Shown: piece by piece, positions 15,651-63,787 of the stretch
Layout of the letters: each line of letters begins with the position of its first letter
Numbering within the stretch: position 1 is the first letter of the stretch
From: Mustelus asterias
Lineage: Eukaryota
DNA: 64,000 nt
Assembly (NCBI RefSeq): GCF_964213995.1
Contig: NW_027590338.1
Location: 248,001 to 312,000, forward strand
Direction of reading: 5' to 3'
The notes under the pieces: model-generated
Told to the model about the DNA's origin: nothing
The model's input: the letters and a program-made list of their open reading frames with translations, nothing else
Databases searched by the model: none
Made by a program: the position numbers and the translations under genes

Positions 15651-16552
15651 TCAGGGTCTAATGAGTTGAAGAATTGCAGTAAGGGGAGCTTTCAGCAGAT
15701 TTTTCAGCTGCTGTCTGAACTGAGTCTGTGTCACAGCATAAATGGCAGTGTTTGTACAGCAACTTGTGAGTTGGAGCATGAAACCCAATTCCATAACAAA
15801 ATAATGTAACCATACTGGGCTATAGCTCACATTTAACATCCGACTCCATATAGAATAAACCATGAATGTCGACCATAAGACGATGAAATTGGCTGAGATA
15901 ACAAACAGTAAAATGATGGATTTCCTTCGACTCTCCATCTCTGGGTCTCTGGGATTCTCTCCACTGCTGTGAGCCCGGAGTCTCCTGCGGGCTCTGCTGC
16001 TCATTAAAATGTGTCTGACGGTGAAAGCATTGAGCAGCAGAATCAGGACGAATGGGACACATGGGGTTAGAATGTAGTGGAGGAACTCGATTGTTCCCCA
16101 GACCGGAGAGTACATAACATGCCATGTGACCAAACAAAACCAGGGGTCGTTCTCCAGCCGATATCTATTTAATAACACAAAATACCAGAAAATGTTCTTT
16201 AAGCAGCTCAGCACCGTCACTGTTCCCAGAACCACAGCCGCCGATTTCTCGCTGCAATATTTACTTTTCAGCTTGGGGCAGCAAATGGCCACAAATCGAT
16301 CAAAGGTGAAAGTGACGGTGAACCAGACAGAACAGTCAGTGGCTGCATAAAGCAGGACGGCGTGGATGTTACACACGGGGACTGAGCTCAGGAAAGTAAA
16401 CAGTTCCTGATAAACAATAGGAATATGTCTCAATATCAGGTCGAGGATAACGACCAGCAGATCCCCCACTGACATGGCCACCAGGTAACGGGTGACACAG
16501 TTGGACAGACCACAGTTTCTGCTCATCAGTGTCACAATTGTGATTATGTTCA
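15651..16552 (-). CDS. GPR139/GPR142-like class A GPCR, gene 1, exon 2 (rest of TM1 through TM7 and C-tail)
   Basis: Acceptor cctgacAG|TG (phase 1). Motifs YLVAMSVGDLL, PVC, FTFDRFVAICC, PWFC, PCVPF, SCCTNTAIY; open to TAG. Spliced product 396 aa. Confidence 0.9.
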
Positions 16553-16689
16553 CTGTCAGGAAGGGAAATAAAGAATGAAATTAGATATGATTCAGGGAAA
16601 GAAGTTACCATTTGGACTGAGGATGGGTTGAAATAAAAAAGAATGTACACACATAAAATCACTTAAATCTTTTTTTTAAAATCCAGCAC

Positions 16690-44102: not shown

Positions 44103-44520
44103 ATGGATCCCATGTCGTCCCGTCATCTCATTATATTGTGGTTTGTACTCGGTACGTATGGCCGTATGTACTTATGTCATACTTCCATCACAACCCAACG
44201 TTCATTTTTATTTCAGGGAGGATTCGCGCAGATTCGGTATCACAATCCAAGACAGAACTCTACGTGACTGAAGGAGACAGTGTGATTACAGATTGTACTT
44301 ATAAAACAAATCTCTTTAATCCTGATCTGTATTGGCACAGACAGCACACAAACTACTTTCTGAGTTTTAGTTTACTTCGGGATAACAGTCGAAGAACAAT
44401 CACAGTTTTTACCAAGGGATGATTCGAGGCTGGTCAGAGTAAGACAGAAAAGAGATTTCCCTTAAAGATCATTCGAACAGGAATCCAGAACACTGCCTTC
44501 TATTTCGATGGGTTGAAAAT
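44103..44520 (+). pseudogene. T-cell receptor alpha/delta-type V gene segment pseudogene (leader + V exon)
   Basis: Leader MDPMSSRHLIILWFVL G|GTACGT (44103-44151), 65-nt intron, then V exon from 44217: DSVSQSKTELYVTEGDSVITDCTY...LYWHRQ...KG*FEAG...FPLKI...NTAFYFDGLK. TGA at 44420 falls in the GRF motif, and the second Cys is lost (YFD). Confidence 0.85.
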
Positions 44521-44559
44521 CGCAGTGGTTTAAAACTTATCTGTCTCTGAACAAAAACC
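44521..44559 (+). promoter_or_regulatory. Recombination signal sequence, 23-bp spacer
   Basis: Heptamer CGCAGTG (one change from CACAGTG, in the critical CAC), exactly 23-nt spacer, perfect nonamer ACAAAAACC, directly abutting the V exon. Confidence 0.9.
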
Positions 44560-44846
44560 TCAGGGCCGACGAACAGGCGTTCTCTCAAGATCACAGGAAC
44601 CTTCGTTGCTCTGTAAGTGACTGTCCTGTTCAGAATCTGTTAGTCCTGCTTCTGAGTTACAAAGTTTTAGGGTCAAGGCTCACTCCTGAGACTTCAGCCT
44701 GTAATCCAGGCTGTTGCCGAGTGGCAGCATCGAGGGCGTGCCAGCAATGGTTGTCATATTTCGCATCAGACCTTAATCTTAGGGACACACACTTCATTTC
44801 TGTAAAATATCCCAGACTTCTTTTTCAGAAAATCATTGCAGATTTC

Positions 44847-45620
44847 ATAGAATCATAGGACCATACAGTGCAGGAGATGCCCTTCGGTCCATCGAGTCTG
44901 TACTGACACGCTAGAAACATTGACGTTCCACTTACCAGCAATTGGCCCATAGGCTTGAATGTTATGATGTGCCAAATGTTCATCCAGGTAATTTTTAAAG
45001 GATGTGAGGCAACTCGCCTCCACCACCCTCTCAGGCAAAGCATTCCAGACTGTCAACACCCTCCAGTTAAAAAAGAAATTCTCACATCCCTCCTAAACCT
45101 TAGCCCCCTCACCTTGAATCTGTGTTCCCTCGTGACTGATCCTTCAAATAAGAGGAACAGCTGCTCCCTATCCACTCTGTCCATGGCCCTTATAACCTTG
45201 TACACCTCGATCAGGTCGCCCCTCAGTCTTTTCTGCTCCAACGAGAACAACACAAGCCTATGGAAACTCTTCATAACTTAAATGTTCCATCCCAGGCAGC
45301 ATCCTGGTGAAACTCCTCTGCATCCCGTCCAGTGCAATCATATCCTTTCGATAATGTGTCACCCAGAACTGCACACAATACTCTAGCTTGGGCCCTTACC
45401 AACTCTACACAACTTTCACATGACCTCCCTCCTTTTTTAATCTATGCCCCGATTGATAAAGGCAATTGTCCCATTTGCCTTTTTCAGCACCCTACTAACA
45501 TGCCCTTTCGTCTTCAGAGATCTGTGCAGAACCACGCCAAGGTCCCTTTGTTCCACTGAACTTCCTGGTGTCATGCCATTAATTAAATATTTCCTTGTCA
45601 ACTTATTCCTTCCATCTGTC
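44847..45620 (-). mobile_element. CR1 3' fragment
   Basis: LFSLEQKRLRGDLIEVYK; tail at 44847. Confidence 0.85.
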
Positions 45621-46766
45621 CTGGGCCTGTCATTAGCTCTCAAGCAGCATCACTGAAAATATCAGATAGATTGTTGTTGTTGGAATTTGTTGTGCGAGTT
45701 GTGGCCAGAGAGGCGCCGACAACAATGATTTCAGCAACAATAGCGGCAATATTAGCTTCAACAGCAATTGTGACAACGAGAGTCAAGCATGCTGGAATTG
45801 ATGTTCAAGTTATAATGAAAAACAGATTCAATTCATAAAGTTGCTGCAAGCTGTGACCAGAGAGAACACTTACCGTTAAAATGATTTAGCTTAATTGACT
45901 TTCATCAAGCTTACTCCTCCAAATATGATTTACAAATCTTCACTATAACAAAACTTTAGATGACCGAGTTTTCTGTGGGAAAATCAAATAAATACAATGC
46001 ATGATGGCAATTATTTCACCCAAAACAATAAAACTAAAAGTCCACGATGAATTCTGTGCGTGAAAATTGTTTCGCTTGCTGTTTGTAGATGGGAAAATGG
46101 GTTCATTGTATCACTTGTTATAGCATATTAACCTCAGTTATCATTTGTCATTTCTGTGAAATCCATCCTGTGTTCGGTGAGTGTGAGAGCAAAACGGTCA
46201 TAGTGACTTCAGATATTTCAGATGTATATCTAGTAAAAAGAATTAGGGAGTAGGAAAGTATTTTGATGATCACTCATGATCAAAATGAAGGGCGAAGTAG
46301 ACTCAAAATGCTGAATGGCTTACTCATGCGTCTATTTTCTGTGTCCAAAACTCTCAGAAGGAAATAAGTGCCGAACTAATCTGATATCTGTGAGCAAGAA
46401 GTAATTGGGCACCTGGCAGAAATCGGAAGAGACGGTCTTTGAATTTGAGATTAGAGCCCAGATCAATATCTCCCCTCACCTGCTGTTCTTGATGTAGACA
46501 CAAAGGCATGGTTTGTGGGAGGTGGATGTAACCATGGAATGAGCAAGCAGAGTTTGGCTCAGTATATAATGGAATCATCCCCCTTGCCAATGGTGCAATG
46601 TGGAGGTACCCAACAGTGAGCGAATCTGTTTGTTCACCGGCCTGTAACTAAGGTGCAGGCTCTAACTTAATTATTCCTCTGGAGACGCTCACTCAGAATA
46701 AATGTGAGACGCTATGAAACCACCGCAGAGCTCAGGTTTAAGCTTCATTTCACTTTCTGGGAGAGG

Positions 46767-46836
46767 ATGCATGGACCAGCAAAAGGTCTCTTCTTCGCCA
46801 TTTTTTATCCCATTCTCGCTGCCATTGGTGTTCCTG
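46767..46836 (+). CDS. GPR139-like GPCR gene 2, exon 1
   Basis: MHGPAKGLFFAIFYPILAAIGVP G|GTAGGT, phase 1, the same junction as gene 1; in-frame upstream TAA at 46668. Not in the ORF track because it is too short. Confidence 0.82.
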
Positions 46837-48059
46837 GTAGGTGAAAGATCCCAAATAAGTCTCATGACTTGAAATGTATGGCGTTGCATAAACATTAGCC
46901 TTTTATTGTTGAAAATTCGGTTTTATTCGAATGTAGTAAAATGCGATCTAGTGTTTTCAGTGTTTTGCACGATAAAGTCTATAAAGTGACCTATATTTCA
47001 TCCACTGGTATGTACAGTCTCAGAAAATGAGCTATCGCAATCTAATAATTCAATTAGATGCATTGACATAGAACATTCATTCACTGCTTACATGAACCTA
47101 TGCTGTGACCTCCAGCAGTTAGTAATCGTTGATTTGTAGTGAGGCGGCACTGGGCTGCCCACATCGTTACTGAGGTTTTAAGGTTGAATTATTGAAACTT
47201 TTGAAAAAGGTGTGGGGGTTATGCATTATGCATTTTGTCTTGTGTTAGTAAGTCTGGTAAATTTCGGATAATTATATTTTTAATCACTAGCTGTATGCAT
47301 GCAGATATGGCAAGGCGAATATGACTTGTCCATATCTAGCTTTCATTTGAGAAGGCGATGTAGCGTTTGTTTCTTCAGACACTCGGATAACTAGAATGGG
47401 GATACTTCACAAGACTTTAACAAATCAACTTTATACTGACCGACAAAATGACTTAGAATTGTTCAACGAATTTATTTTCTAAGGATCGTCCTGAAGCACA
47501 AAGGGAAAGTTTAGTCTTTGAAAGAAGAAGTTCCAGAGGTTAGGGTCTCGGCACGTAAAGGCAAACTGAAAAGATCAAATCAGGGTCATGGAAGTCCACA
47601 CTCGGAGGTATGGTGTGATCTCAGATAGTTGTAGCATGTTATCAAAATCTGGAAAGGCGAGATTATGGAGGGATTTATAATTCGAAGGACGAGATTATAA
47701 AAAACAGAGACGCAGCCTGAATGGCAGCCGATAGGGCTGATGGGTGGATGGGATTGGTACGAATAAGAACAACGACAGCAAATTTTCTGAGAATCTGAAA
47801 TTTGATAGTTATCTGAGGGGATCAACTCAGTGACCAGAGGGCAGAGTTACAATTTGGACTGATTGCAATGTCTCCTGATTTAAAATAACTTGAATCCAGT
47901 TTTGAATGTCGGACCATTGCCAAAGACTTTGCAATCACTGGAGTCTGGAGTTGGCAAAGTGAAGGATGAGAATGTTTTCAGTAACTGATTGGATGGCGCA
48001 GCAGCTGGTGTTTCGAGCGCTCTCGGTAACACATCTCTCTGTCTCTTTCTATCTCACAG

Positions 48060-48949
48060 CCAACTTGGTGACGATCGTAATCTTATCCCGAGGACGGTGC
48101 GGACTGTCACGGTGCATCACCTACTACCTGATCGCGATAGCATTGACTGATTTCCTTGTCATCATCACCGCCATAATCCTCAACCGGATTGGCCGCATCT
48201 ACTTTCAGAACAGCGTCCTGTCTACCACCCCCGCATGCACACTCAGCGCTCTGCTGGTCTATTTTGCCCGGGATATGTCCGTCTGGTTGACAGTGGCTTT
48301 CACCATCGACCGTTTTGTGGCCATCTGCTGCCAGGGCCTGAAGGCCAGATACTGCACCGAGAAAGCAGCATTGCTGGTTATAGGAATAGTCTGTGCCTTG
48401 AGCTGTGTCAGGAATGTCCCTTTCTACTTCACTTACCAGCCCTTGTACACCCTGGACGGGGTGCCCTGGTTCTGTGCTGTTAAGTCCAGCTATTACACGG
48501 TGCCCGCCTGGCAGGCCTATGACTGGCTGGACCACATCTTAACTCCGTTTCTCCCGTTCCTGCTCATCCTGTTTCTTAACGCGCTGACCGTTAAACACAT
48601 CTTAGCGGCCAGCAGAGCCCGCAGGAGACTCCGGGGCACGGAGAGTCACGGGGACCCAGAGATGGCCAACCGCAAGAGGTCCATCATCCTGCTCTTCGCC
48701 ATCTCCCTCAGCTTCCTCCTCCTCTGGGTCACCTATGTCGTACATTTCCTCTATGTGCGGATTACAGGTGAGGGCTACCGCACCAGCCTGGATTTCAAAG
48801 ACCCACGGTACATCCTTCAGGAAGCAGCAAACATGCTCCAGCTAGTCAGTTCCTGCAACAACGTCTTCATTTACACAGTCGCCCAGACCAAGTTCCGAGA
48901 GGACCTGAAGAAGGTTCTGCTATGCCCCTTCACCACGCTCACTGGCTAA
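48060..48949 (+). CDS. GPR139-like GPCR gene 2, exon 2
   Basis: Acceptor tctttctatctcacAG|CC. Motifs ANLVTIVIL, YLIAIALTD, PAC, FTIDRFVAICC, PWFC, PFLPF, SSCNNVFIY; open to TAA. Spliced product 319 aa. Confidence 0.92.
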
Positions 48950-49144
48950 AATACACATCAGCACGTGCTTGGCTTTCATCTACTTAGATCAATGTGTACT
49001 CCGTCTCTCTGGAATCAGACACTATTGGGCTTCAGATACAGGACTTGAGAGATTTAACGCTCATAATACAGTGCCCACAGCCCCCGTTGTTGCTCTGAAT
49101 GAATGCTGAGTTATCACAGTTGCTAACTTCCTGGAGGAGATATG

Positions 49145-50900
49145 TAGTGATGGAGATTTCCAGCATGGAAAGAGGCCCTTCGGCTATAAAACACCTATAG
49201 AATCAAATCCCATTTTGCAACAGTTGGTTCGCTTCCTTGCATGCTATGACGTTTCAAATGTTCATCTAAATGCTTCTGAAATGTGAGGGTTCTTTCCCCT
49301 GCCATACTTTCAGGCAGTGAGTTCCCGATTCCCGCCACCCTCTGGCTAAAAAGTTTTTCTGCAGGTCCCCTTTCAATATCATGCTCCTTTCCTGAGGTCG
49401 ATGCCGCTGGTTATTGACACCTCTACTAAGGGGAATAGTTATTCTCATCTGGATTATCTATTTCCCTCATAGTTTGGTACAAATCAGTGAGGTTCCTCTC
49501 AGTCTTCTCCACTTTAAGGAAAATAATCCCAGCCTATCCAGCCTCTTTTCATCGCTGAAAACTTCAGCCCAGGCAGCATCCTGTTGAATCCCCTTAATAT
49601 CCTTTCTACTACAACCACATCTGTATGTGCAGCGAACCGAAATGCACATGGTACTCTAGCCGTGGCATAATGAGAGTTTTATTCAGCTCCAGCATAAACT
49701 CTGTGCTCTTTTCATCTATGCCTCTGCTAATAAAGGCAAGTACACCATGTGAACTCTTAACCACTTCATCTATCTGTCCTGCTGGCTTCACGAATCTTTG
49801 GATATGGACCACAAGGACTCTATGGTTTTTTTGTACATCCAAACGTCCTACCGTTCATTGTGCATTCCCATGACTTGTAAGCCCTCCCGAAATGTATGAC
49901 GTTACGCTTTTGAGAGTTCAATTCCAGTTGCCTCTTTTCTGCCCATCTGACCAGCCCATCCGTATCATCTGGTAATCTATGGCTTTCCTCCTTACCGTTT
50001 ACCACAACACTATTTTTGTTTCACCTGCAATCTTACTGATCATCCACCGCTGGCTCCCCTTCACATTCAACTCTAGATCACTAATGTACACGACAAACAG
50101 CAAGGGGCCCAGCATCGATCCCTGCAGTACACCACTGGACACAGGCTTCCAGTCACAGGAACAACCTTCGACCATCATCCTCTGCCTCCTGCCACTCAGC
50201 CAATTTTGGATCCAATTTGCCAAATTGCTCTGAATATCATGCGTTCTTACCTGCTTGATCACGCTCCCATTTGCGATCTTGTCAAAAGCCTGAAGTCCAT
50301 TTAGTCCACATTAACTGCACTTCTCTCATCTACAATTCTAGTCACCTCTTCGAAAGTTTCAGTCATATTTCTCCGGCACGATCTCCCCTGACAAAGCCAT
50401 GATGACTTCACTCGGTTAATCCTGCCTCACCAAGTGGTGATTAATTCTGTCCCTCAGAAATGTGTCCAATAGTTTCTCTTCCCCTGACATTAGACTCACA
50501 GGCCGGAAATGATCTGTTTTTATCCCCTGCACACTTTATTGAATAATGGTGCCGCATTAATTGTCCTCTTCCCCTCTGGCATCTCGGCTTTAGCCAGGGA
50601 AGTTATAAAAATTAGTGCCAGGTCCCTGTAATCTCCGCCCTTGCCTCACACAGCTGCCGAGGATTGGGCCTGGAGATTTATCCACTTTTAAACCCGTTAC
50701 AACGGCTAAGACCTCCTTCCTCTCAATATCAATCTGTTCAATTTCATCAGTCTTTTCCTTGCTTTATATACCTATATCCCGCTTCTCCATGGTGAACACA
50801 TGCAAAATATCCATTTAATATCTTACCTACAGCTTCAGTTTCACACACAGATTGCCACTTTGGCCCCAAATGCTCCCATTCTTTCTCTGGCTACCTTCCT
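49145..50900 (-). mobile_element. Old degenerate CR1
   Basis: GVLQGSMLGPLLF and PRLEY remnants. Confidence 0.8.
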
Positions 50901-51029
50901 GCCCTTAAAATACTTACAAAAAAACACTGTGTCTGCCGTCCCAGATGGAATACACAAGGTTACCCGGTCGCAATTAGCAAAAAGAACAGAAAGTGGCCTC
51001 TCCAGCTTCCAGGGGATACAATTATTCTT

Positions 51030-53418
51030 TATTTCACAACAGCTTGTGATGGAGCCCACGAGGGAACAGGCTATTCTGGACTTAGTGTTATGTAATGAGC
51101 CAGACGTGATAAAAGATCTTAAAGTAAGGGAACACTTAGGAAGCAGTGATCATAATATGGTAGAATTCAGTCTGCAATTTGAAAGAAGGAAGGCAGAATC
51201 AGATGTGAAGGTTCTACAGTTAAATAAAGGTAATTACAGGCGCATGAGGGAGGAACTGACAAAAATCGACTGGAAGCAGAGCCTAATGGGAAAGACAGTA
51301 GAACAGCAATGGCAGGAGTTTCTGGGAGTAATTGAGGACACAGTGCAGAGGTTCATCCCAAACAAAAGAAAGGTTATCAGAGGGGGGATTAGGCAGCCAT
51401 GGCTGACAAAGGAAGTCAGGGAATGCATCAAGGCAAAAGAGAGAGCCTATAATGTGGCAAAGAGTAGTGGGAAGTCAGAAGATTGGGAAGGCTATAAAAA
51501 CAAACAGAGGATAACAAAGAGAGAAATAAGGAAGGAGAGGATCAAATATGAAGGTAGGCTAGCCAGTAACATTAGGAATGATAGTAAAAGTTTCTTTAAA
51601 TACATTAAAAACAAACGGGAGGCAAAAGTAGACATTGGGCCGCTCCAAAATGACGCTGGTAATCTAGTGATGGGAGACAAGGAAATAGCTGAGGAACTTA
51701 ATAAGTACTTTGCGTCAGTCTTCACAGTAGAAGACATGAGTAATATCCCAACAATTCAGGAAAGTCAGGGGGCAGAGTTGAATATGGTTGCCATCACAAA
51801 GGAGAAAGTGCTAGAGAAACTAAAAGGTCTGAAAATTGATAAATCTCCGGGCCCAGATGGGCTACATCCTAGAGTTCTAAAGGAGATAGCTGAAGAAATA
51901 GTGGAGGCGTTAGTTATGATCTTTCAAAAGTCACTGGAGTCAGGGAAAGTCCCAGAGGATTGGAAAATCGCTGTTGTAACCCCACTGTTCAAGAAGGGAA
52001 CAAGAAAAAAGATGGAAAATTATAGGCCAATTAGCCTAACCTCAGTTGTTGGCAAAATTCTAGAATCCATCGTTAAGGATGAGATTTCTAAATTCTTGGA
52101 AGTGCAGGGTCGGATTAAGACAAGTCAGCATGGATTTAGTAAGGGGAGGTCGTGCCTGACAAACCTGTTAGAGTTCTTTGAAGAGATAACAAATAGGTTA
52201 GACCAAGGAGAGCCAATGGATGTTATCTATCTTGACTTCCAAAAGGCCTTTGACAAGGTGCCTCACGGGAGACTGCTGAGTAAAATAAGGGCCCATGGTA
52301 TTCGAGGCAAGGTACTAACATGGATTGACGATTGGCTGTCAGACAGAAGGCAGAGAGTTGGGATAAAAGGTTCTTTCTCAGAATGGCAACCGGTGACAAG
52401 TGGTGTCCCGCAGGGTTCAGTGTTGGGGCCACAGCTGTTCTCTTTATATATTAACGATCTAGATGATGGGACTGGGAGCATTCTGGCCAAGTTTGCCGAT
52501 GATACAAAGATAGGTGGAGGGGCAGGTAGTATTGAGGAGGTGGGGAGGCTGCAGAAAGATTTAGACAGTTTAGGAGAGTGGTCCAAGAAGTGGCTGATGA
52601 AATTCAACGTGGGCAAGTGCGAGGTCGTACACTTTGGAAAAAAGAATAGAGGCATGGACTATTTTCTAAACGGTGACAAAATTCATAATGCTAAAGTGCA
52701 AAGGGACTTGGGAGTCCTAGTCCAGGATTCTCTAAAGGTAAACTTGCAGGTTGAGTCCGTAATTAAGAAAGCAAATGTAATGTTGTCATTTATCTCAAGA
52801 GGCTTGGAATACAAAAGCAGGGATGTACTTCTGAGGCTTTATAAAGCACTGGTTAGGCCCCATTTGGAGTACTGTGAGCAATTTTGGGCCCCACACCTCA
52901 GGAAGGACATACTGGCACTGGAGCGGGTCCAGCGGAGATTCACACGGATGATCCCAGGAATGGTAGGCCTGACATACGATGAACGTCTGAGGATCGTGGG
53001 ATTATATTCATTGGAGTTTAGGAGGTTGAGGGGAGATCTGATAGAAACTTACAAGATAATGAACGGCTTAGATAGGATGGACGTAGGGAAGTTGTTTCCA
53101 TTAACAGGGGAGACTAGGACGCGGGGGCACAGCCTTAGAATAAAAGGGAGTCACTTTAGAACAGAGATGAGGAGAAATTTCTTCAGCCAGAGAGTGGTGG
53201 GTCTGTGGAATTCATTGCCACAGAGGGCTGTGGAGGCCGAGACGTTGAGCGTCTTCAAGACAGAAATTGATAAATTCTTGATTTCTCGAGGAATTAAGGG
53301 CTATGGGGAGAGAGCGGGTAAATGGAGTTGAAATCAACCATGATTGAATGGTGGAGTGGACTCGATGGGCCGAATGGCCTTACTTCCGCTCCTATGTCTT
53401 ATGGTCTTATGGTCTTAT
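51030..53418 (+). mobile_element. Young 5'-truncated CR1 LINE with uninterrupted RT-containing ORF
   Basis: Open from QQLVMEPTRE to stop 53331, with all RT motifs (PQGSVLGP, FADDTK); tail (TCTTATGG)n. Confidence 0.95.
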
Positions 53419-53894
53419 ATTGATACACTTATCTGTTCCATTTTCCTATTTTTAAAAAAAATAATGCTAAGTGCATATTTGCCGCTGCATTTCGTACATT
53501 GCAACATGAAAGTATTTAATTGGCTCCTGACAGCTTTCGGAGGTATGTTTCTGACGATGTTAATCAACCACCGCCCAATCATGGGTGCTGACATTTTTGA
53601 TAAAATTTCAAAGTAATGTTAAACATAGTGTACTCGCTCTTTCAATATCTCCCTTGTCTTCTCCATCCTCACCTCCAACAACAAGAGTGAGGAGCTCATG
53701 GAGCGTTCTTGTCACTAAGATTGAGACAACCTGATCAGTTGCCTCTGCTGCTTCCCTCCCTTCTACCAGCCCATCGAAGAAAATAACTTCGGACATTCGA
53801 AGCTATCACGGTAATAATAGGCTTTCTGTTCCTGTAACATTTGCGATTGAGCTTTTGTTTTCCTGTAGTTGTTGAGGTATGGCCGCAATCAAAA

Positions 53895-54230
53895 TGTGGA
53901 GGTGGTGGCCTGGAGGTATTGTCACTGGATTAATTATCCAGAAACCCACTGTAATGGTCTGGAGACACGTGCTCGAATCCTACGATGGCAGATGGTGACA
54001 ACTGAATTCAAAAATATGGAATTAAAGGTCTAATGATGACTATGAAACGATTGTCGTAAAACCCGGTCTGGTTCATTGATGTCCTTTAGGGAAGGTAATG
54101 TCCTTACCTCGTCTAGCCTACATGTGACTTCAGACCCACAACAATGCAGCTGATTCTGAAATACCCTCCGAAATGGAGGGCAGTTGTGAATAGGCCAGCG
54201 ATCCCCACATCCCCTGAACGCATTTTATAA
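53895..54230 (+). mobile_element. tRNA-derived SINE, second family
   Basis: Degenerate A box and B box (GCTCGAATCC), with a body unlike the V-SINEs. Confidence 0.55.
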
Positions 54231-55514
54231 AATCCCAATACCACAGGAATTTCTGTTTGGGCTATTTACACATTCATCCTCTCGATGTATCCATGGAAAG
54301 ATAGAACCATAGAAATGATACAGAACAGAAGTGGCATTTGGCCGATTCTTTCCATGCTGATCCAAGGACACCGGTTCTAATCCTATTTTCCTGCACACGG
54401 CTTATTGCCCTGCAAATTACAGCAGTTAAGGTGCAGATCCAAGGACTTTACAAACGAATTGAGTCAAGCATTCACCACAATGATTCAGTGCCAACATTTA
54501 AATGTTGCCCATTGTTGACCAACATTGCTCAAATGTTGCTACAAAGTAAGGAGCATTGAAACTTTCCATTTTCACTTAGACACTGAAGAATCTCCTCTCA
54601 AAATGAAACCGAAATCAATTCCTCTTTAACGATGTGCATTTATTGTTTTATCTGAAAAGCACATTCATATGATGCTGTTTACCTAATGTGAAAAAAATAT
54701 TTAGATTGGTAAAAATGGAGAACTGAGCTGCATTGACATAGTTGGAGGAACACACAAAAACATGTACACCGGAAGTGACCGAGGCCTGAGGAGAGACATG
54801 CATCCAGTACACAAGAAAGCCACTAACTTCGCTCAATTGTTCTTCAATCGTTCAGCTGTTCTTCAAACTATGATTTACAGCATCGTAGATGACTCTTCCC
54901 CGCTGATTGAACAGTTAACACTTGCCTTGGCTGTTGTTTTTACTGCAATGGTACATAAGCAAAGGAGAAGATATAGGGCATCTGAACTCCCGAGCCTTGG
55001 CCGATCCTCAGTAATATCGGCAGGATTGGAATATGTGTGGGCAGAACACCCTCACCCCCGAAGGATTTCTAATTCATCGCCGAAACCACCAGTCCTCAAA
55101 TACTCAAATACATGGTCATGCACGTGCTTTTCATATAATATCATCTTGGCTGCAGGAGAGCAGCTCGCTATTCCGCCCATCTTGTCCATGTCAGTTCACT
55201 GGAAGATCACTTTAACTGGTTCTACACACGCTCCCTTTTCCACATCAGTTCAAATTCGTGTTGTCTCTCCTTGTTCTCCACGGCAAATTAAAACATCGTA
55301 CAATCCACTTAAAATTATGCTGCTACTTATCCACTCCAATGGCTTGACTGAAAAGATTTAAAATCTAAACAAAATAAACTTTGGCAGGAGTGGGAGTCAA
55401 AAACATACGTCCATCAAGACTAGAGTCGTCATCGAGTGCATTAGACCCACTCACCCACGTCACCATGCAAACCACAAAAACAACGTTTGCCTTCAATTAC
55501 ATTGATATTGTTGC

Positions 55515-55795
55515 AGAATAAAGTTTATTTATTAGTCAAAAGTAAGGCTTACATTAACATTCAAATGAAGTTACTGAGAAAGCCCCTTAATCGCCACATT
55601 CCGGCGCTTGTTCGGGTCAATGCACCCTAACCAGCACGTCTTTCAAATTGTGGGTGGAAACCGGAGCACCGGGAGGAAACCCACGCAGACATGGGGAAAA
55701 CGTGCAAACTCCACACGGACGATGACTGAAGCCGGGAATCGAATCCAGGTCCGTGGTGCTGTGAGACAGCAGTGCTAACCACTGTGCCACCCATG
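55515..55795 (-). mobile_element. V-SINE
   Basis: A box TGGCACAGTGG, B box GATTCGATTCC, V-domain and tail. Confidence 0.88.
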
Positions 55796-56089
55796 TACAC
55801 GAATCCCACTTTCCAGCATTTGGCCCAGAGCTTTGAATGTTATGGTATTGCTGGTGTTCATACATTTTAATAGGTTGTGATGAATGCCTCATCTACTACC
55901 CACCAAGGCAGTGCATTTCGGTCTCCCACCAGCCTCTGGGTGAAAACATTTTCCTCAAAACCCCAGTAAACTTTCGGCACCTCACCGTAACATTATGCCC
56001 CCTCTTTATTGACCCTTCAAATCAGGGTAGCAGCTGCTTCCTATCCACCCTGTCCATGCTCCTCGTAACCTCATACACCTCAATCGTCC

Positions 56090-56362
56090 TTCGGGAAAAA
56101 GATACAAAAGTCTGACGTCACGTACCCACCGACTCAAGAACAGCTTCTTCCTTGCGGCTGTCAGACTTTTGAATGGAATTGACTTGCATTAAATTGATCT
56201 TTCTCTACACCCTAGCTATGACTGTAAGACTACATTCTGCACTCTCTCATTTCATTCTCTATGAACGGTATGTTTTGTCTGTATAGCGCGCAAGAAACAA
56301 TACTTTTCACTGTACGTTAATACATGTGACAACAATAAATCAAATCAAACCAAATCAAATCA
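56090..56362 (+). mobile_element. Rex/Babar-like LINE 3' end inserted in a CR1 fragment
   Basis: Homologous to 18890-19122; AATAAA followed by (ATCAA)n tail. Confidence 0.7.
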
Positions 56363-57157
56363 GGTCCCACCTCAGCCTTGTTGTGCCCCCAGAGAAGAGT
56401 GGAGAACTTAAGTGTGTATCTTTATGGGAGAATTGGATATTAAATTATTCGCATGAGTTCTGCTCCGGGCTCTGAGAATCATTCCCGTGGCTTGTGATTC
56501 CTGGTGTGTCAGCGTTCGGTTCGAATGTAGTGCCATGTCTGCCTTGGGGATATTTGATGGGACAATGCAGAATTAACCGCATGCTTCAATACAGTGCATT
56601 CAGTCAGGTCAGCATGCCCCTGCTCTGTCATGGAAACCGATATGTGAATGTGACAGGCTATTATGTGAAAAAGTCAGAAATGCTGACTGTGCCGTCAATC
56701 AGCTTCCGCCACTTTATAACAAAAGGCAGGTGTAGATGGAACACTGGGTGACACAGCGGCTCCTTCACTGAAGTGTAGTAGGTTCGATAAAAATCCAAAC
56801 AGGATTGAATAAAAAGCTGTGTGGGTTAAAAGCGGCGGCATGAGAGAAGGGGCGTTCGGTTTTGAAAATAGCGCAATTAGGATATGTCGTGCAGCTAGGC
56901 AGTTAACAACCTCGACATTACGTACTTTGTAATTCAAGATTTATTTACAATTTCATAGAGAACACTTTATGGAAACATATAATTTAAAGTTGACCCCAGG
57001 TGAATATACAAACTGAGCGTCACAATGAGAACAGAATATTGATCGTTTAAACAGCCAATTGTCTAAAACTATCTCAAACTGGAGAGAAAAAAACGGGGCC
57101 TCGACATAAAATGCAGTGAACAATGCTAATGAGAAATAACGACTAATTAACAATACG

Positions 57158-57364
57158 AAGTCTCACAACACCAGGTTAAAGCCCAAAATGTTTATTTGGT
57201 ATCATGAGCTTTTGGAGAGCTGCTCCTTCATCAGGTGACTCACTTGATGAAGGAGCAGCGCTCCGAAAGCTTGTGATATCAAATAAACCCGTTGCACTTT
57301 AACCTGGTTTTGTGAGACTTATTACTGTGCACACTCCAGTCCAATGCCGGCATTTTAACATCAT
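57158..57364. mobile_element. Penelope-type palindrome with two back-to-back hammerhead motifs
   Basis: Inverted arms 57158-57238 / 57241-57320, each containing YTGATGA-A-GGAGC...CTCC-RAAAGCT, plus the shared tail. Confidence 0.75.
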
Positions 57365-57618
57365 CATTAGTTTACAAATCAATTCAAACAATGGCGACAC
57401 TCAAAGATACAATCATACTATCGACATGATTATCTCATTCAATTAAAAAAAAGTAACAGAAATCCAGCTTATATTGCAACCTCGATTTTGGATTCGGATC
57501 TGTTCACTGGAGGCACTATAACTTTGAGGATCACGATGATAACGTACTTTAATTCCACAGCACCATTTTGTGAATAAACGGATGGGTAAATACCACACGA
57601 TTTCCGAAACTCAATCAA

Positions 57619-57627
57619 TTACTCCAC
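57619..57627 (-). pseudogene. IGHM: Probable IgM TM2 exon (VE* instead of VK*)
   Basis: ttttatttctctttggAG|GTG GAG TAA, ~140 nt after the TM1 phase-0 donor. Confidence 0.55.
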
Positions 57628-57768
57628 CTCCAAAGAGAAATAAAATGACTAAACAGCCGTTTTATGTCTTTGAGACATTTAACTGAAAGCTCTTATTAAT
57701 TGAGACTTCTGGACATTTTTCAATCTTCTCCTATCTGATTCAAATGTGAGTAGATTGAATCATCTCAC

Positions 57769-57896
57769 CTTCAACAGAGTGACTGCAGCGCTGTAGGACA
57801 TGCTTAGGAAGAACAGGACTATGAATGTAGAAGCGGTTGTCCAGATGTTGCTGTTATCATCCTCCTTGACTGCAATCCTGATGGACTCTGTGGAAT
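57769..57896 (-). pseudogene. IGHM: IgM transmembrane exon TM1 (open)
   Basis: AG|(D)STESIRIAVKEDDNSNIWTTASTFIVLFFLSMSYSAAVTLLK|GTGAGA. Carries the conserved antigen-receptor TM motif and is phase-compatible with the internal CH4 donor at 61935. Absent from the ORF track. Confidence 0.9.
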
Positions 57897-58939
57897 CTAC
57901 GGGATGATATAGGGGACACTTTTAGTTCTTCTGTTAACCTAGGTTATTATTTTGGTTGCTCGTCTTTTATTTCTTCAAGGTATTATGTTGTTTTCTGATA
58001 TAATTTTCAATCCTATCTGTTATTAACTTAATCGCATAATGCAATTTTCAATACATATATTATTAAGTTAACCTCTCTCAGCAAGATAAGGTGTTACAAT
58101 GTCCACAACCGTTCTTCTTTTATTTTCCTCATACAGCCCGTTTTCGCAAATACATGTTATTCCTCAATCTTAGGCGTCCATTTAGTCTGGTGTAATTTTC
58201 TGCCAACTGTCACTAAACAATACTCTGAAGACTAAACAGGTGAAGTTAACTAATATGGACTGAGTGACTTGGGTCTACATTCTCCCCAGCTTAGAACAAT
58301 GAGAGGAGATCACATGGAAACAAAATAATCCGAAAGGATTTGACAAGCTAGACACTGAAATGTCGTTTCCGCTGGTTCCAAAGGGCATATCCCTTGGATA
58401 ATTATGAGTTAACTTAGGTCTGAGATGACGAGGCATTCCTTTATTATGATTATGAATCTTTGGAGCCTCTTCCCCAGAGGATACTGGATCATCTCTACCA
58501 GCTCGACCTTTGCCTCTGGTTCCATTTGTGCATCGCCGGTGTCTGCCGTTGTGAGCGTATTCTCTCTACTTCAAATGAATTAGAGGAGATCGCATTGAAA
58601 CGAAATCATCCCAATGGGTTTGACATGACAGACACTGAGAGATTGTTTCCTCTGGTTCTGGAATCCACAATAATGGGGCATAGCCTTTGGATATGTGGGT
58701 TGTAGTTTAGGGCTGAGATAAGGAGTCACTCCCTTACTTAGGATTATGAATCTCGGACGTTATTTGCCCTAGAGGACTGTTGCCCACTGTGGAATATGTT
58801 TAGGGCTGAAGTAGACATACTTTTGGTTTTTCAGGTAAGCAAAGGACATGGGGAATGGGTGGGAAATTGGAGTAGGACGCAATATCAGGCATGATCGTAT
58901 TAAATATTAAAGTAACTCACATTTGGCCTCTTGTCTAGT

Positions 58940-59285
58940 CATATAATCCCTACTGTCCAGAAGAGGCCATTCGGCCATCAAGTCTGCACCAACTCTTGGC
59001 AAAGGTGCATTACCCAAGCTCTCTGCCGCCATATCCCCGTAACTCCTCATATTCCCCATGGCTAATCCATGTAACCTAAATATCTTGGGACACGACGTGC
59101 AAGTTAGCAACATCAATCCAGCTAACCTGCTCATCTTTGGATTGTGGGCAGAAACCAGAGTACTCAGAGGAAACCTATGCAGACACACAGGAAGAATGTG
59201 TAAACTCCACACAGACAGCCACCTAAGGCCCGAATTAAACCGGTGTCCCTGCATCTGTGAGGCAGCAGAGCTAACAACTGTGTCA
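58940..59285 (-). mobile_element. HE1-like V-SINE with CR1 tail
   Basis: Degenerate head, V-domain and CR1-type tail. Confidence 0.7.
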
Positions 59286-61837
59286 CTGATAGTATTTTCT
59301 ATTTACTCCTGATCTACCAAGAAGATTTTAGAGAAAAGTACAGATAGCCATTTATTGTGGTATTGTAAATGATAACAGGTAATAGATCGGAAGAATTACA
59401 TTTTTTGTTTGTGTAGGTTTGGCAAATAATTTATTCACGTCAGTTTCTAAAGGAGAACGTTTTCAGCCTTTGACAGGCCAATATGTATTGAAATCACGTT
59501 TTACAAAATGTGTCTCTTAGGAAACCGACTTCAATATTAATTGTCCCTATAGCCTTCCGTTTTGGTTTGTGTTTTAGTCTTTGTATATGTGTGTAGGAGG
59601 ATAATGCTGACCTGCTTTATTCTTTGATTGTGTGTCCCTGTGTGTGGGAAGGTGTTACGTGCGCGCATGTCCATATAAATATGTGAAAAAGAGACTTTTC
59701 GAAGCTTCCCATCTTGCAGTCAGAGGACAATTGTACGAAGATCAAATGTAAATGCAGCAATAATTTATACTTCATGACAAAAGAGTGCAGATTGGTTGGC
59801 AAGTAAACTGTGATTGGTAGAGGGGTTCCAGGGCGAATGTACCTGTGAATCGTTGGTTGACAGTTAACTGCCAAGCTTTGTTTAAATTCAGACAAGGCAC
59901 TTTAACCCTGATTGGTGAAGACATTGCTCTGAGGAATGAATCAGAGTGTTCTGTCGTCTACTTTGTTCAGATGGAACAGACACAATGTCTGTACAGTTAT
60001 TTCTGTCTGAAAAGCAGCTTTTAACACAGTTAGTTGCACAACACTCACCACTTTCTTCCGAAGAATTATAAATTGGTGTTTCTTTTATATTTATTATTCT
60101 TGTGAAGAGCCTGGTGAGTGCAATATGTACAGCTTCAACATGTCTCCTTTTCAGCGATACGCAACTTCTGTACTACCATATGAATATTTGATTGTTAATG
60201 TTTTCATATGAAAATGATGTGCATTATGTGTATTTATTAGTCCGCGTCAATGGGCATATTTTATGTTTGTCCATTCCTATGCATCAATGTATGTTTTAAT
60301 ATTTCTGCTTGTGTGTGTATTTGACTGTTAATGTTAGGCAGTGAGTGTTTATGTGCTGGAGTCCATATTTAGGTGTTATTGAGTGTGTTACTGTGGGCTC
60401 ATATGTTCATATGTTTATGACTCAGTTTGTGTGCCGGTGTGTTTATGAATATTGTAATGTTTTTGTCCTTGTGTGTACATTTGATATAGATTTCACTCAT
60501 GTGTATGTGCGCACATATGTGTTGAATCATTTGTATCTCTCGCTTTCTGCCAATGGGTCTGCTAATGGGTGTTTTTCACAGTCAGAGTATGCTCACTATT
60601 TTGGCTATGCTTGGGTCTGAGAATCTGTTGGCCTGTGTTTGTGAATGCCTGTTTGAGTTTTTTATTGCGAGTGTATGTGTGTCAATGTGTATGATCGTCT
60701 TAAACGAATGGTTTTTTTTTAATTTGCGAGAGGTAATGATTTATTGATGTTTACGTTTGTATTTGCTTCTCGGTCTGTGAGCGTGTTTGTGGTGATATAC
60801 ATGCCTGTGTTTATCTGTTTTCTGTGTGTCAGCAATTGAAAATGATCATTACTGCTCCAAGTTTCACCGAGTACAATGAACCGGAACTGGCCCTGCCAGA
60901 GTATATTAACAGAATAGTGGCCTCATTCTGAAGACATGTAGTGTAATGTGAGCTGCAATGTGACAACAAACTGAACGAAAGAACAATTCAAATTTAGAAC
61001 AGGAAAAATCGGGTGGGCTTCATTCACTGGTGAAGTTTTGGGTAGCTAGAATTTAATGCATCATACTTTTAACAGATTTGAACCAATAGCAGCTGAGTGT
61101 ACATAATAGGTTCCTTTCTAATTTCTCTGCTTGGCGGATCGGAGTATAATTGGTTTACAATTGCCCTTACCCCTGTCTCTGGTGCCAGAGTGAGTATAAT
61201 GGGCTAGCAAAAGCACTTCCTCCTCTCTCTCTGGTGCCAGAGTCAGTATAATGGGTTAACAATTGCCCTTTCTCCTGTCTCTCGTCATGACAGATTGAGA
61301 ATAATGGATTAACAATGGCCATTTTCTTTACAATCTCTGGTGGGTGAGTGGAGACGTGGGAAGACAGTGAGTTCATGATTTCCTTTTATCCCCTGTCTGT
61401 TTGGGAAGTGCGTATCTGTGGGTTAAGTAGACCAGTGTCCCAGCGACGGCGGGGGAGGATAGCTTCATTTCTTTTTCTTATGTTGCTTTGACTTCAGTTC
61501 CCACTGGGCGCCATGCGGCAACGTAGAAGTGATCAAAGCTTTGATGGAGTTGACAACACGAGAAACGAATCGTCTATATTTTAAAGTGACTGCACATCAC
61601 CAGTAACTGGATGAACGTTGCTGAAGTTACTCAGCGGGATCATGGAATTAATTATCATCAATTTGTCGTTATTTGGTGCTCCAACGCAATTTGGAGCGCA
61701 GGTTTTCTGAGCCTAAGGCAAGAGACTGGCAAGTAACTTCCGTCAGGGGAGCAGTTTTTATTCTCGTGGCTAACACTGGAAGCAAGATTAATGAGCAAGT
61801 TTTATGTTTATCTCACAGGTAGAAGGGGGAAAAAAAC

Positions 61838-61852
61838 TTTATTATTTTTATT
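61838..61852 (-). terminator. Secretory-form polyadenylation signals (two AATAAA)
   Basis: TTTATT on plus at 61838-43 and 61847-52, just past the secretory tail. Confidence 0.7.
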
Positions 61853-61879
61853 GCGTCTCGAAACACAACCGACAGATTT

Positions 61880-62265
61880 TTACTGACATTAATGAACGGT
61901 GTTCATCAGCGCAATCTTCACAAAACTGGGTTTACCGCTGGATTTCTTAGCCGTTCTGATGATGGTCTTCAAGGGGAAGGCTTCCTGTCCCACCACACAG
62001 GAGTAAGAAATGTCGCTGGCCCACTCTTCTGCTGCAATGGATAACAGGCTGGACATGAAGTAGGAGCTATTGCCGTTCTCCGCCACCACCTCGGTGTTCT
62101 TGTAGTTCCCAGGATTCACCAGCTTGCCATTGACGGTCCACTTGACGAAGATGTCTGGGGGGGAGAAACCTCTCACTAAGCAGCTGAGGTAAATGAATCT
62201 CTGAGTGAAGGCTTCTTCTGCCGAGGGCAGGGGGATAAAGATGGATGGTTCCCGCGGATTTGGAT
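61880..62265 (-). pseudogene. IGHM: IgM CH4 exon + secretory tailpiece (tail truncated)
   Basis: [17 protein letters not shown]...YSCVVG...KSS|GKPSFV matches shark C-mu4 as I recall it. The tail reads NTVH*CQ*, a premature TAA before the penultimate Cys. Confidence 0.9.
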
Positions 62266-63499
62266 CTGCAGACAATGTATAATAAATGTCAATTGTTAAG
62301 GACCTGATATGAAATTCCAAGGTATTTTATGAAGTTAGCCTCGACCCTAACTTTGACATCTGATTTGGCATTAGGGTGAGTATAAGGTGTTTCAATCCAG
62401 GTATGATTCAAGTGTCCCACTAGGAAGCTTTTGTCAAAACAAACATTATTTAACAACACAGTTCAAAAATAACCAAAAGAACTGGCATAAGTTTACCAAT
62501 TAAAGTACTTAAATACGGCATCATGTAATTCTTAACAGCTAGTTAACAGATGCTTAAATGGGCACTAGATTTCCAGCCTTTTGACACTTCTGAAGAGTGA
62601 TCCAGACAGACACCTGTCTGTTAATTCTCGTGCAGCAACTCCCAAACAGAAGAATCCCGGAGAAAAAGGCTTATTTCTTGGCGGATTTCAGTCTCCACTT
62701 CAGACAGAGCAAGAGTTGCAGAGGAAGCAACCTCGACCTAAAGATCCCAAAAGCAAACTGCCTTGAGTTCTCTGTGAAATCTAGCTTCACTCAATCATAA
62801 GATCTTACCTATCCATCAAGCTAATCAAGCCCCAGTTTGCAATATCCCAAGGGAAAACACAAAAGAACAGAATCTGCACTTGTTCAGACCAAAACAGACA
62901 TTGCAGCAATTAAGATCAATTAGGCTGCTGCGTACAGACAGAGCAGTTCCGATCATAGAAAAACAAACTGCTACAAGAGATCCTGCGCAATCTATTTCAT
63001 AAAGATACAGTATCGTAACACAATAAACTGGAAAATGCCGGATACAATGAAACCGCTGGTCAGATATGAGAGAAATGTGCTTTGTGTTGGATTTTAAAGG
63101 TTTCCATTTTTCATTTTGTGACCTGTCCAGTTTCCCAGCTCAGAACAGAGGTGAACAAAAATATTTTTCCTGAGCACTTAGCGGGTTGGTCTCGAAATAT
63201 TGATAAAGTTAACAATATCGATACAGGCCATTCAGTCCTGCTGGCCTGTGTTTGTGTTCAAGATTCACACTCGGTTCCTCCCACCTTATTCCATCTAAAA
63301 CCATCACCATGGCCGTCAATTCATTTTTCATTTTTCTATTTCTCATTCTCCCCTTAAAGTCTCCAGGCACAAAGTGCTTGGTTAGTGGAAATGCCAATCA
63401 GGATAAATCAGAAATACACTGAATAGTAAATATTGACCTTTGCATTTACACTCGAAATAGAAACAATGACTCACTAATCACTTCAACCTCTCCACCCAC

Positions 63500-63787
63500 C
63501 TGTTTTCTTGTGGATGGTATTTCTGAAAGGAGTCGGCAGATCCTGATGGCTCACCACGCAGTCAAACACAGCCCCACTCAGCCAGGCTTGTGTCGAGATG
63601 TTTAAGTTGCTGACCTCAGAATCTTCTCCAGACTGGTCGGCAATCTCTGATTTCAAATGCTTCTTCTCTTGGATCCAGGACACGTTGACTCCAGAAGGAG
63701 CATTAGAAATGACCCAGGCTAAGGTTGCGGTCGCCTTCAGTGGTGGTGGCAGTATCGTCACTGTGGATTCAAGGCACTGGGGAGGAT
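63500..63787 (-). pseudogene. IGHM: IgM CH3 exon (in frame but damaged)
   Basis: AG|(D)PPQC...VTILPPP^[15 protein letters not shown]...NVSW...[23 protein letters not shown]...HKKT G|GT. The first intradomain Cys is replaced by Trp, and there is an apparent short in-frame deletion after PPP. Confidence 0.88.

Follow-up and report, generated by a model that had tools for sequence, protein, structure and literature searches.

In the antigen-receptor complex (AgRC) of elasmobranchs, IgH clusters have TCR alpha/delta V exons between them, according to the available sections of Flajnik et al. 2025 (PMC12227049). For the great white shark, Table S1 of that article has entries named "IgM (missing V)" and "IgM pseudo?" interspersed with TCR Vs; catshark and stingray each have a single TCR delta constant model there, immediately upstream of TCR alpha. 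The same sections treat the chimera of an IgH V with TCR delta as established in sharks, and section 15 covers inverted V segments 3' of a TCR C region, as in human TRDV3 and TRBV30. Two articles (PMC6795676, PMC12227049) assign the TCR genes of sharks to the translocon type. Duplicated D-J-C-delta in frogs and birds and tandem TCR-mu clusters are covered by an excerpt of PMC3457774, and separated TRA and TRD in newts by an excerpt of PMC12698447.

We analyzed a window of 64,000 nucleotides from the shark Mustelus asterias, i.e., the whole stretch of DNA under study, located at 248001-312000 of contig C306, together with related contigs of the same assembly. As in the AgRC of the available sections of PMC12227049, IgM miniclusters, V-less or pseudogene IgM, and TCR alpha/delta Vs in both orientations occur in one region with TCR J and C. 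We observe this linkage on contig C71, which combines 16 JH matches, TCR V arrays, C-delta, and J-alpha-C-alpha and holds a paralogue of the block in the window that comprises a TCR V, a G protein-coupled receptor (GPCR) gene, and an IgM TM exon; C306 itself is not placed on C71. An interleaved Ig/TCR locus, one reading in the original prediction, is therefore borne out, as an arrangement already published in PMC12227049, whose available sections do not mention GPCR passengers. The V and C-mu of the window are an ordinary relic of that arrangement and add little, and they are outweighed in importance by a side finding on TCR delta outside the window.

The TCR V segment and its family

On the plus strand of the window, a leader exon (L-part1, 44103..44151; ATG at 44103, GT donor at 44152, phase 1) is separated by a 65-nt intron from a TCR alpha/delta V exon (44217..44520), which is followed by a 23-RSS (44521..44559) made up of the heptamer CGCAGTG at 44521, a 23-nt spacer, and a perfect nonamer. 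The chance expectation in the window for sites this near the RSS consensus is approximately 0.0015. The split leader, V exon, and 3' 23-RSS of a TCR alpha/delta V segment are thus all found at 44103-44559, as originally predicted. The V exon itself is a pseudogene by its translation: an in-frame TGA lies in FR3, and YFD instead of YFC removes the second Cys. A functional V segment has an open frame, both Cys, and a CAC heptamer; here the frame is interrupted, one Cys is missing, and the heptamer is CGC. The CAC of the heptamer is required by RAG, and because it has been lost, we predict that the window V is not cut. Against Pfam V-set the V fragment scores 15.4 bits (cutoff, 26), since the scan covered only the 64 residues before the stop. 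Codon differences from an intact V (28 nonsynonymous and 12 synonymous) would be loosely compatible with neutral decay.

In a tree of 38 rows (IQ-TREE), the window V is nearest to an intact V on contig C315, with which it shares 85% nucleotide identity, and then to horn shark P0003. All three lie within a clade that also includes coelacanth P0002 (support, 99/99), outside of which fall IgM VH, the VH-like segments that precede D-delta, and NAR V, in agreement with the predicted TCR alpha/delta type. A DNA search in which the best 150 of 1404 candidates were scored, so that its counts are lower bounds, recovered at least eight copies at 95 to 100% identity, the window's own included. The CGC heptamer and the absence of the second Cys are common to 8/8 of these close copies, and the TGA occurs in 4/8. 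Together with CH1-CH4 being kept in the surroundings of only 3/8, this runs against the functional paralogous cluster that had been proposed.

Among the 30 best V-family loci examined, eight are open with a CAC heptamer. These are located on contigs of the antigen-receptor complex, several of which also carry IgM, and the five of the eight whose surroundings were inspected all lie in dense two-way TCR V arrays; for C315, 14 TCR Vs are listed, 6 on the plus and 8 on the minus strand. Such intact members would normally join TCR D-delta or J-alpha of the same complex. Because TCR Vs in the region face both ways, the convergent orientation of the window V and C-mu, originally taken as a pointer to inversional joining, is uninformative. 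For the intact family V, a look-up listed no RNA data set containing it, and three RNA runs compared with it displayed the intron and no joint; these results are uninformative on expression either way.

The IgM constant region and the intervening GPCR gene

The IgM exons lie on the minus strand, converging with the V at an RSS-to-TM distance of 13.2 kb, in line with the roughly 13 kb given in the original prediction. TM1 (57769..57896) is open and has its splice sites. CH4 with the secretory tail (61889..62265) carries a 6-nt deletion and an early stop that takes away the tail Cys, and CH3 (63500..63787) has lost its first Cys and bears in-frame deletions of 15 and 6 nt; both pass the Pfam C1-set cutoff. 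Annotation of the flanks beyond the window adds a stop in CH2 and an insertion of approximately 950 bp that splits CH1. Similarity of this C-mu to the neighboring cluster ends approximately 300 bp into the J-C intron, and upstream of C-mu, 44 kb of C306, 41 kb of C127, and 34 kb of C1987 (to the contig start) yielded no VH, JH-like sequence, or RSS. A functional shark IgM minicluster has V-D-(D)-J upstream of CH1 and intact CH1-CH4 and TM; here the former is missing, and of the latter TM1 alone is open. The early notion that both units are disabled thus holds, the V through its TGA, CGC, and missing second Cys, and C-mu through damage to CH1-CH3 and a shortened tail. The D closest to the window V is part of another IgM cluster, on the plus strand, which has an open V and D-J; this cluster lies 65 kb from the window V and in the same orientation, i.e., ordinary and not inverted. 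A live ancestor of the window V would hence have had a 12-RSS D within reach.

Between the window V and the IgM TM exon sits an intact two-exon gene for a rhodopsin-family GPCR (46767..48949, plus strand; exons 46767-46836 and 48060-48949), encoding 319 amino acids (7tm_1, E value of 9.8e-22). It had escaped the original prediction. The gene has been duplicated together with the V, and it lies approximately 4 kb downstream of the V in 8/8 close copies. Farther along the plus strand, positions 51040..53417 hold a LINE-like insertion with an 873-codon open frame, which appears as a gap in the alignment with C127; judged by reverse-transcriptase motifs, it is a putative LINE.

The order V-GPCR-TM-CH4-CH3-CH2-CH1 is collinear on C306, C127, and C1987 at 99.8 to 99.9% identity, with the C127 copy being free of the 2.4-kb insertion. 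All contigs compared for the junction are from one assembly and so do not amount to independent read evidence. The V-GPCR-TM junction is also present on C71 (12.74 Mb) and C108 at 90 to 96%, where only the IgM TM exon remains and is followed by a TCR V array, and copies on C124, C900, and C88 are broken off right after the GPCR. The right-hand neighbor of the V-GPCR block is therefore a whole C-mu on three contigs, the TM exon only on two, and none on three; the underlying searches scored the best 40 of 107 CH4 candidates and the best 40 of 1456 GPCR candidates, which makes the counts lower bounds. Because the junction persists in copies that are 4 to 10% apart, the V-GPCR-TM adjacency is old and not a fresh accident.

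Origin of the V and C-mu juxtaposition

The window very probably holds a dead TCR alpha/delta V beside a dead C-mu devoid of V, D, and J, the two having likely been juxtaposed by duplication and deletion and being unable to rearrange; most likely, the pair does nothing. The V would have left a TCR V array as part of a block that included the GPCR. Because all eight copies share both lesions, the loss of the heptamer and the second Cys would predate their multiplication, and after the death of the V the V-GPCR block may have been duplicated and then broken at different points. Segmental duplication and deletion within the shark antigen-receptor complex would bring V and C-mu together, leaving a C-mu with nothing to join to. 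The intact GPCR is likely the sole part still working. Counted against such a dead relic are the closest single-domain structure, TRDV3, being that of an inverted V located after its C region, the age of the V-GPCR-TM adjacency, and the D-J cluster 65 kb off in the orientation of the V.

The parallel with TRDV3 and TRBV30 that the original prediction drew stands in part. Like them, the window V is inverted 3' of a C region and faces back to it, and TRDV3 is the best single-domain PDB match of the V family. Unlike them, the C region is C-mu, no D or J lies upstream of it, and the RSS is defective. It is possible, yet rather doubtful, that the V is a displaced TRDV3-type inverted V-delta that owes its position to a duplicated C-delta unit, with C-mu arriving later. 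A coelacanth homologue (58% identical) is likewise TRDV3 by automatic naming, and family pseudogenes are found inverted approximately 60 kb 3' of C-delta at 11.04 and 12.27 Mb of C71 and on C111. However, orthology here is a matter of best-hit names, the tree having no TRDV3 sequence among its rows, the C71 and C111 copies belong to another subfamily and stand in V arrays that face both ways, and no match to C-delta exists on C306 or C127. An origin of this kind is compatible with the V and C-mu being a dead relic and would add to it only where the V came from.

Germline evidence on joining of TCR V to IgM

If true, an IgM heavy chain that carries a TCR V would be a receptor of a new type; no trace of one is seen in the germline. 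A single exact JH pattern, which can miss divergent JH and, being applied to the germline, is blind to somatic joins, matched 80 sites, against 0 in the control. We examined 1.5 to 2.3 kb upstream of each of 79 of these 80 JH, leaving out C2117 with its 42 upstream bases. An IgH-type V in sense orientation is located upstream of 79/79, germline-joined ones included, and a TCR V upstream of 0/79. By comparison, three of the five delta units inspected carry germline joins of TCR V to D-delta, and these RAG-type fossils therefore point TCR V to TCR delta, not to IgH. The proposed chimera of TCR V with IgH D-J-C-mu is not supported. Inversional joining at the window is also unsupported, because C-mu would have to be preceded by a D or J, and the three contigs yielded neither.

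Such a chimera would rest on the close Ig/TCR linkage that also underlies the trans-rearrangement of IgH V to TCR delta, which in sharks is said to have been described by Criscitiello (2010) and Deiss (2019); unlike those joins, the proposed joining of a TCR V to C-mu has left no trace in this germline. We consider it very unlikely that intact TCR Vs among IgM clusters join IgH D-J-C-mu in lymphocytes, with the window pair as the relic. The 12/23 rule permits a TCR V with a 23-RSS to join an IgH D, and the eight open family loci, several on contigs shared with IgM, would offer suitable segments. The opposite joining, of IgH V to TCR delta, is also established in sharks (PMC12227049, available sections). 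Against it stand the absence of D and J at the window C-mu and the JH survey set beside the delta units, as well as the literature searched, which holds no report of a TCR V on C-mu, although several key shark TCR papers were not covered. Still less probable is a misassembled join of V and C-mu, an eventuality named in the original prediction: duplication in the region is extensive and a single assembly supplies the supporting contigs, but three of them are collinear, one differing by the 2.4-kb insertion, and the V-GPCR-TM junction is found again on two diverged contigs.

TCR delta units outside the window

TCR C-alpha and C-delta exons were located through a J-motif pattern (197 matches versus 2 in the control) and typed by the signatures in the available part of PMC10322711, where CLXXXFXP is the trd constant signature. 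J-alpha arrays lie at 18.37 to 18.42 Mb of C71 and on C546. Small J groups are present at 7.12, 11.02, and 12.25 Mb of C71 and on many contigs besides; they are followed by a constant exon that bears CLXXXFXP and by a TM exon containing Arg and Lys. DNA and protein searches agree on 19 C-delta exons, all of them outside the window; the exon is open with splice sites in 19/19, the signature is found in 19/19, and a TM exon is seen in 14/19 within the approximately 5 kb fetched. There are two C-alpha exons, mutually 84% alike. At identity thresholds of 99.5%, 99%, and 98%, the C-delta copies fall into 16, 12, and 4 groups, respectively, which for one diploid animal would correspond to at least eight, six, or two loci, respectively. 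Signature, TM Arg and Lys, and upstream D and J, as expected of a TCR delta constant gene, are all found.

The canonical order of C-delta, J-alpha array, and C-alpha (PMC10322711, available part) is not seen. No C-delta was detected in C71 18.29 to 18.38 Mb, which takes in the 80 kb before the J-alpha array, or in C546 110 to 140 kb, and DNA and protein searches found none on C546 as a whole or past 12.27 Mb on C71. This is unlike the single, TCR alpha-linked models for catshark and stingray in Table S1 of PMC12227049, as far as that table is available: none of the 19 C-delta exons was found beside a J-alpha array. As in frogs, birds, and newts, C-delta exists in more than one copy, each equipped with its own D and J and lying apart from TCR alpha; unlike the about two TCR delta copies there, we count 12 to 16 distinct ones, those on C71 being among IgM clusters. 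A simple scan returned no connecting-peptide exon of C-delta, Pfam PF09291 matched neither the TCR constant regions nor the controls, and protein searches gave no named full-length shark TCR chain among their matches. In PDB and ESM Atlas, C-delta has only generic C1-set matches.

We lean toward a cluster-type organization of TCR delta, with at least six and possibly at least eight D-J-C-delta units, their constant exons intact in appearance, among IgM miniclusters and apart from J-alpha-C-alpha. With similarly modest confidence, we regard the dispersed units as probably real, working, and unreported; in the literature searched, which did not include key shark TCR papers, multicopy shark C-delta is unreported. 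If this is true, the TCR V islands between IgM clusters, the window V family included, would be a local V supply, and many "trans" joins of Ig with TCR delta would be short deletions in cis, a route testable by matching the V to the C-delta copy used. Cluster-type TCR delta would also blur the distinction between Ig and TCR and raise the question of allelic exclusion for gamma-delta T cells.

The three C-delta copies on C71 lie among IgM clusters, 44 to 106 kb from an IgM JH. All five delta units inspected have a D flanked by 12- and 23-RSS or a germline-joined V-D, three to five J with 12-RSS, and a TM exon (5/5). Upstream of them are IgH-type Vs, a NAR-TCR cassette, or an IgM cluster. At 7.10 and 12.24 Mb of C71, IgH-type Vs stand directly upstream of D-delta, and in one unit an IgM cluster ends, with its TM exon, 9 kb before the first J.

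Dispersed TCR delta units among IgM clusters

J-pattern, DNA and protein searches of the Mustelus asterias assembly (GCF_964213995.1) recovered 19 open TCR C-delta exons, 12 to 16 of them distinct, spread across contig C71 and 16 other contigs. Each of the five C-delta units that we read carries a transmembrane (TM) exon and three to five J segments, together with either a D or a joined V-D. On C71, units at 7.10-7.15 Mb, 11.01-11.05 Mb and 12.22-12.28 Mb (L097-L107, L117-L122) are interspersed with IgM clusters and lie approximately 6 Mb or more from the J-alpha-C-alpha region. At C71:10998808-11047050 (L124, L125, L103-L106), an IgM cluster of the germline-joined type is arranged head to tail with relics of TCR V segments and with a J-C-delta unit, all on the same strand, and 9 kb separate the IgM TM exon from the first J-delta.

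Germline-joined TCR V-D-delta segments were observed at three loci, in each case ahead of J-delta and with the 23-RSS of the D retained. The segment at C71:11023484-11023790 (L104) is a pseudogene, and those at C436:213426-213740 (L127) and C119:553379-553690 (L131) use a NAR-TCR supporting V. Behind another NAR-TCR supporting V, a perfect 23-RSS occurs three times in tandem at 61-bp spacing (C71:12229725-12229847; L117).

The IgM cluster neighboring the window has a single fused D at C306:357200-357240 (L015), with a 395-bp deletion and the outer RSSs kept, versus two D segments in the copy at C127:490857-491264 (L154). The two copies, otherwise nearly identical, differ here by a germline D-D join or by a deletion.

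TCR C-alpha exons and other contents

C-alpha exons at C71:18419390 (L113) and C546:240148 (L151) each lie behind their own J-alpha array and are only 84% identical, possibly representing two TRA loci. Elsewhere on C71, a TCR V array (6522172-6561076; L234-L238) forms an inverted duplication of approximately 39 kb, each end bearing an intact, outward-directed member of the window V pseudogene's family.

Within the window, two 7tm_1 GPCR genes (46767-48949, plus strand; 15654-16580, minus strand) are related (46% identical) and belong to a hugely expanded family (1456 candidates in the assembly search); among the best 40 of these, which were scored, many matches fall on Ig/TCR contigs. At the left end, positions 137-1547 hold open frames that are putatively zinc-finger-like by their motifs.
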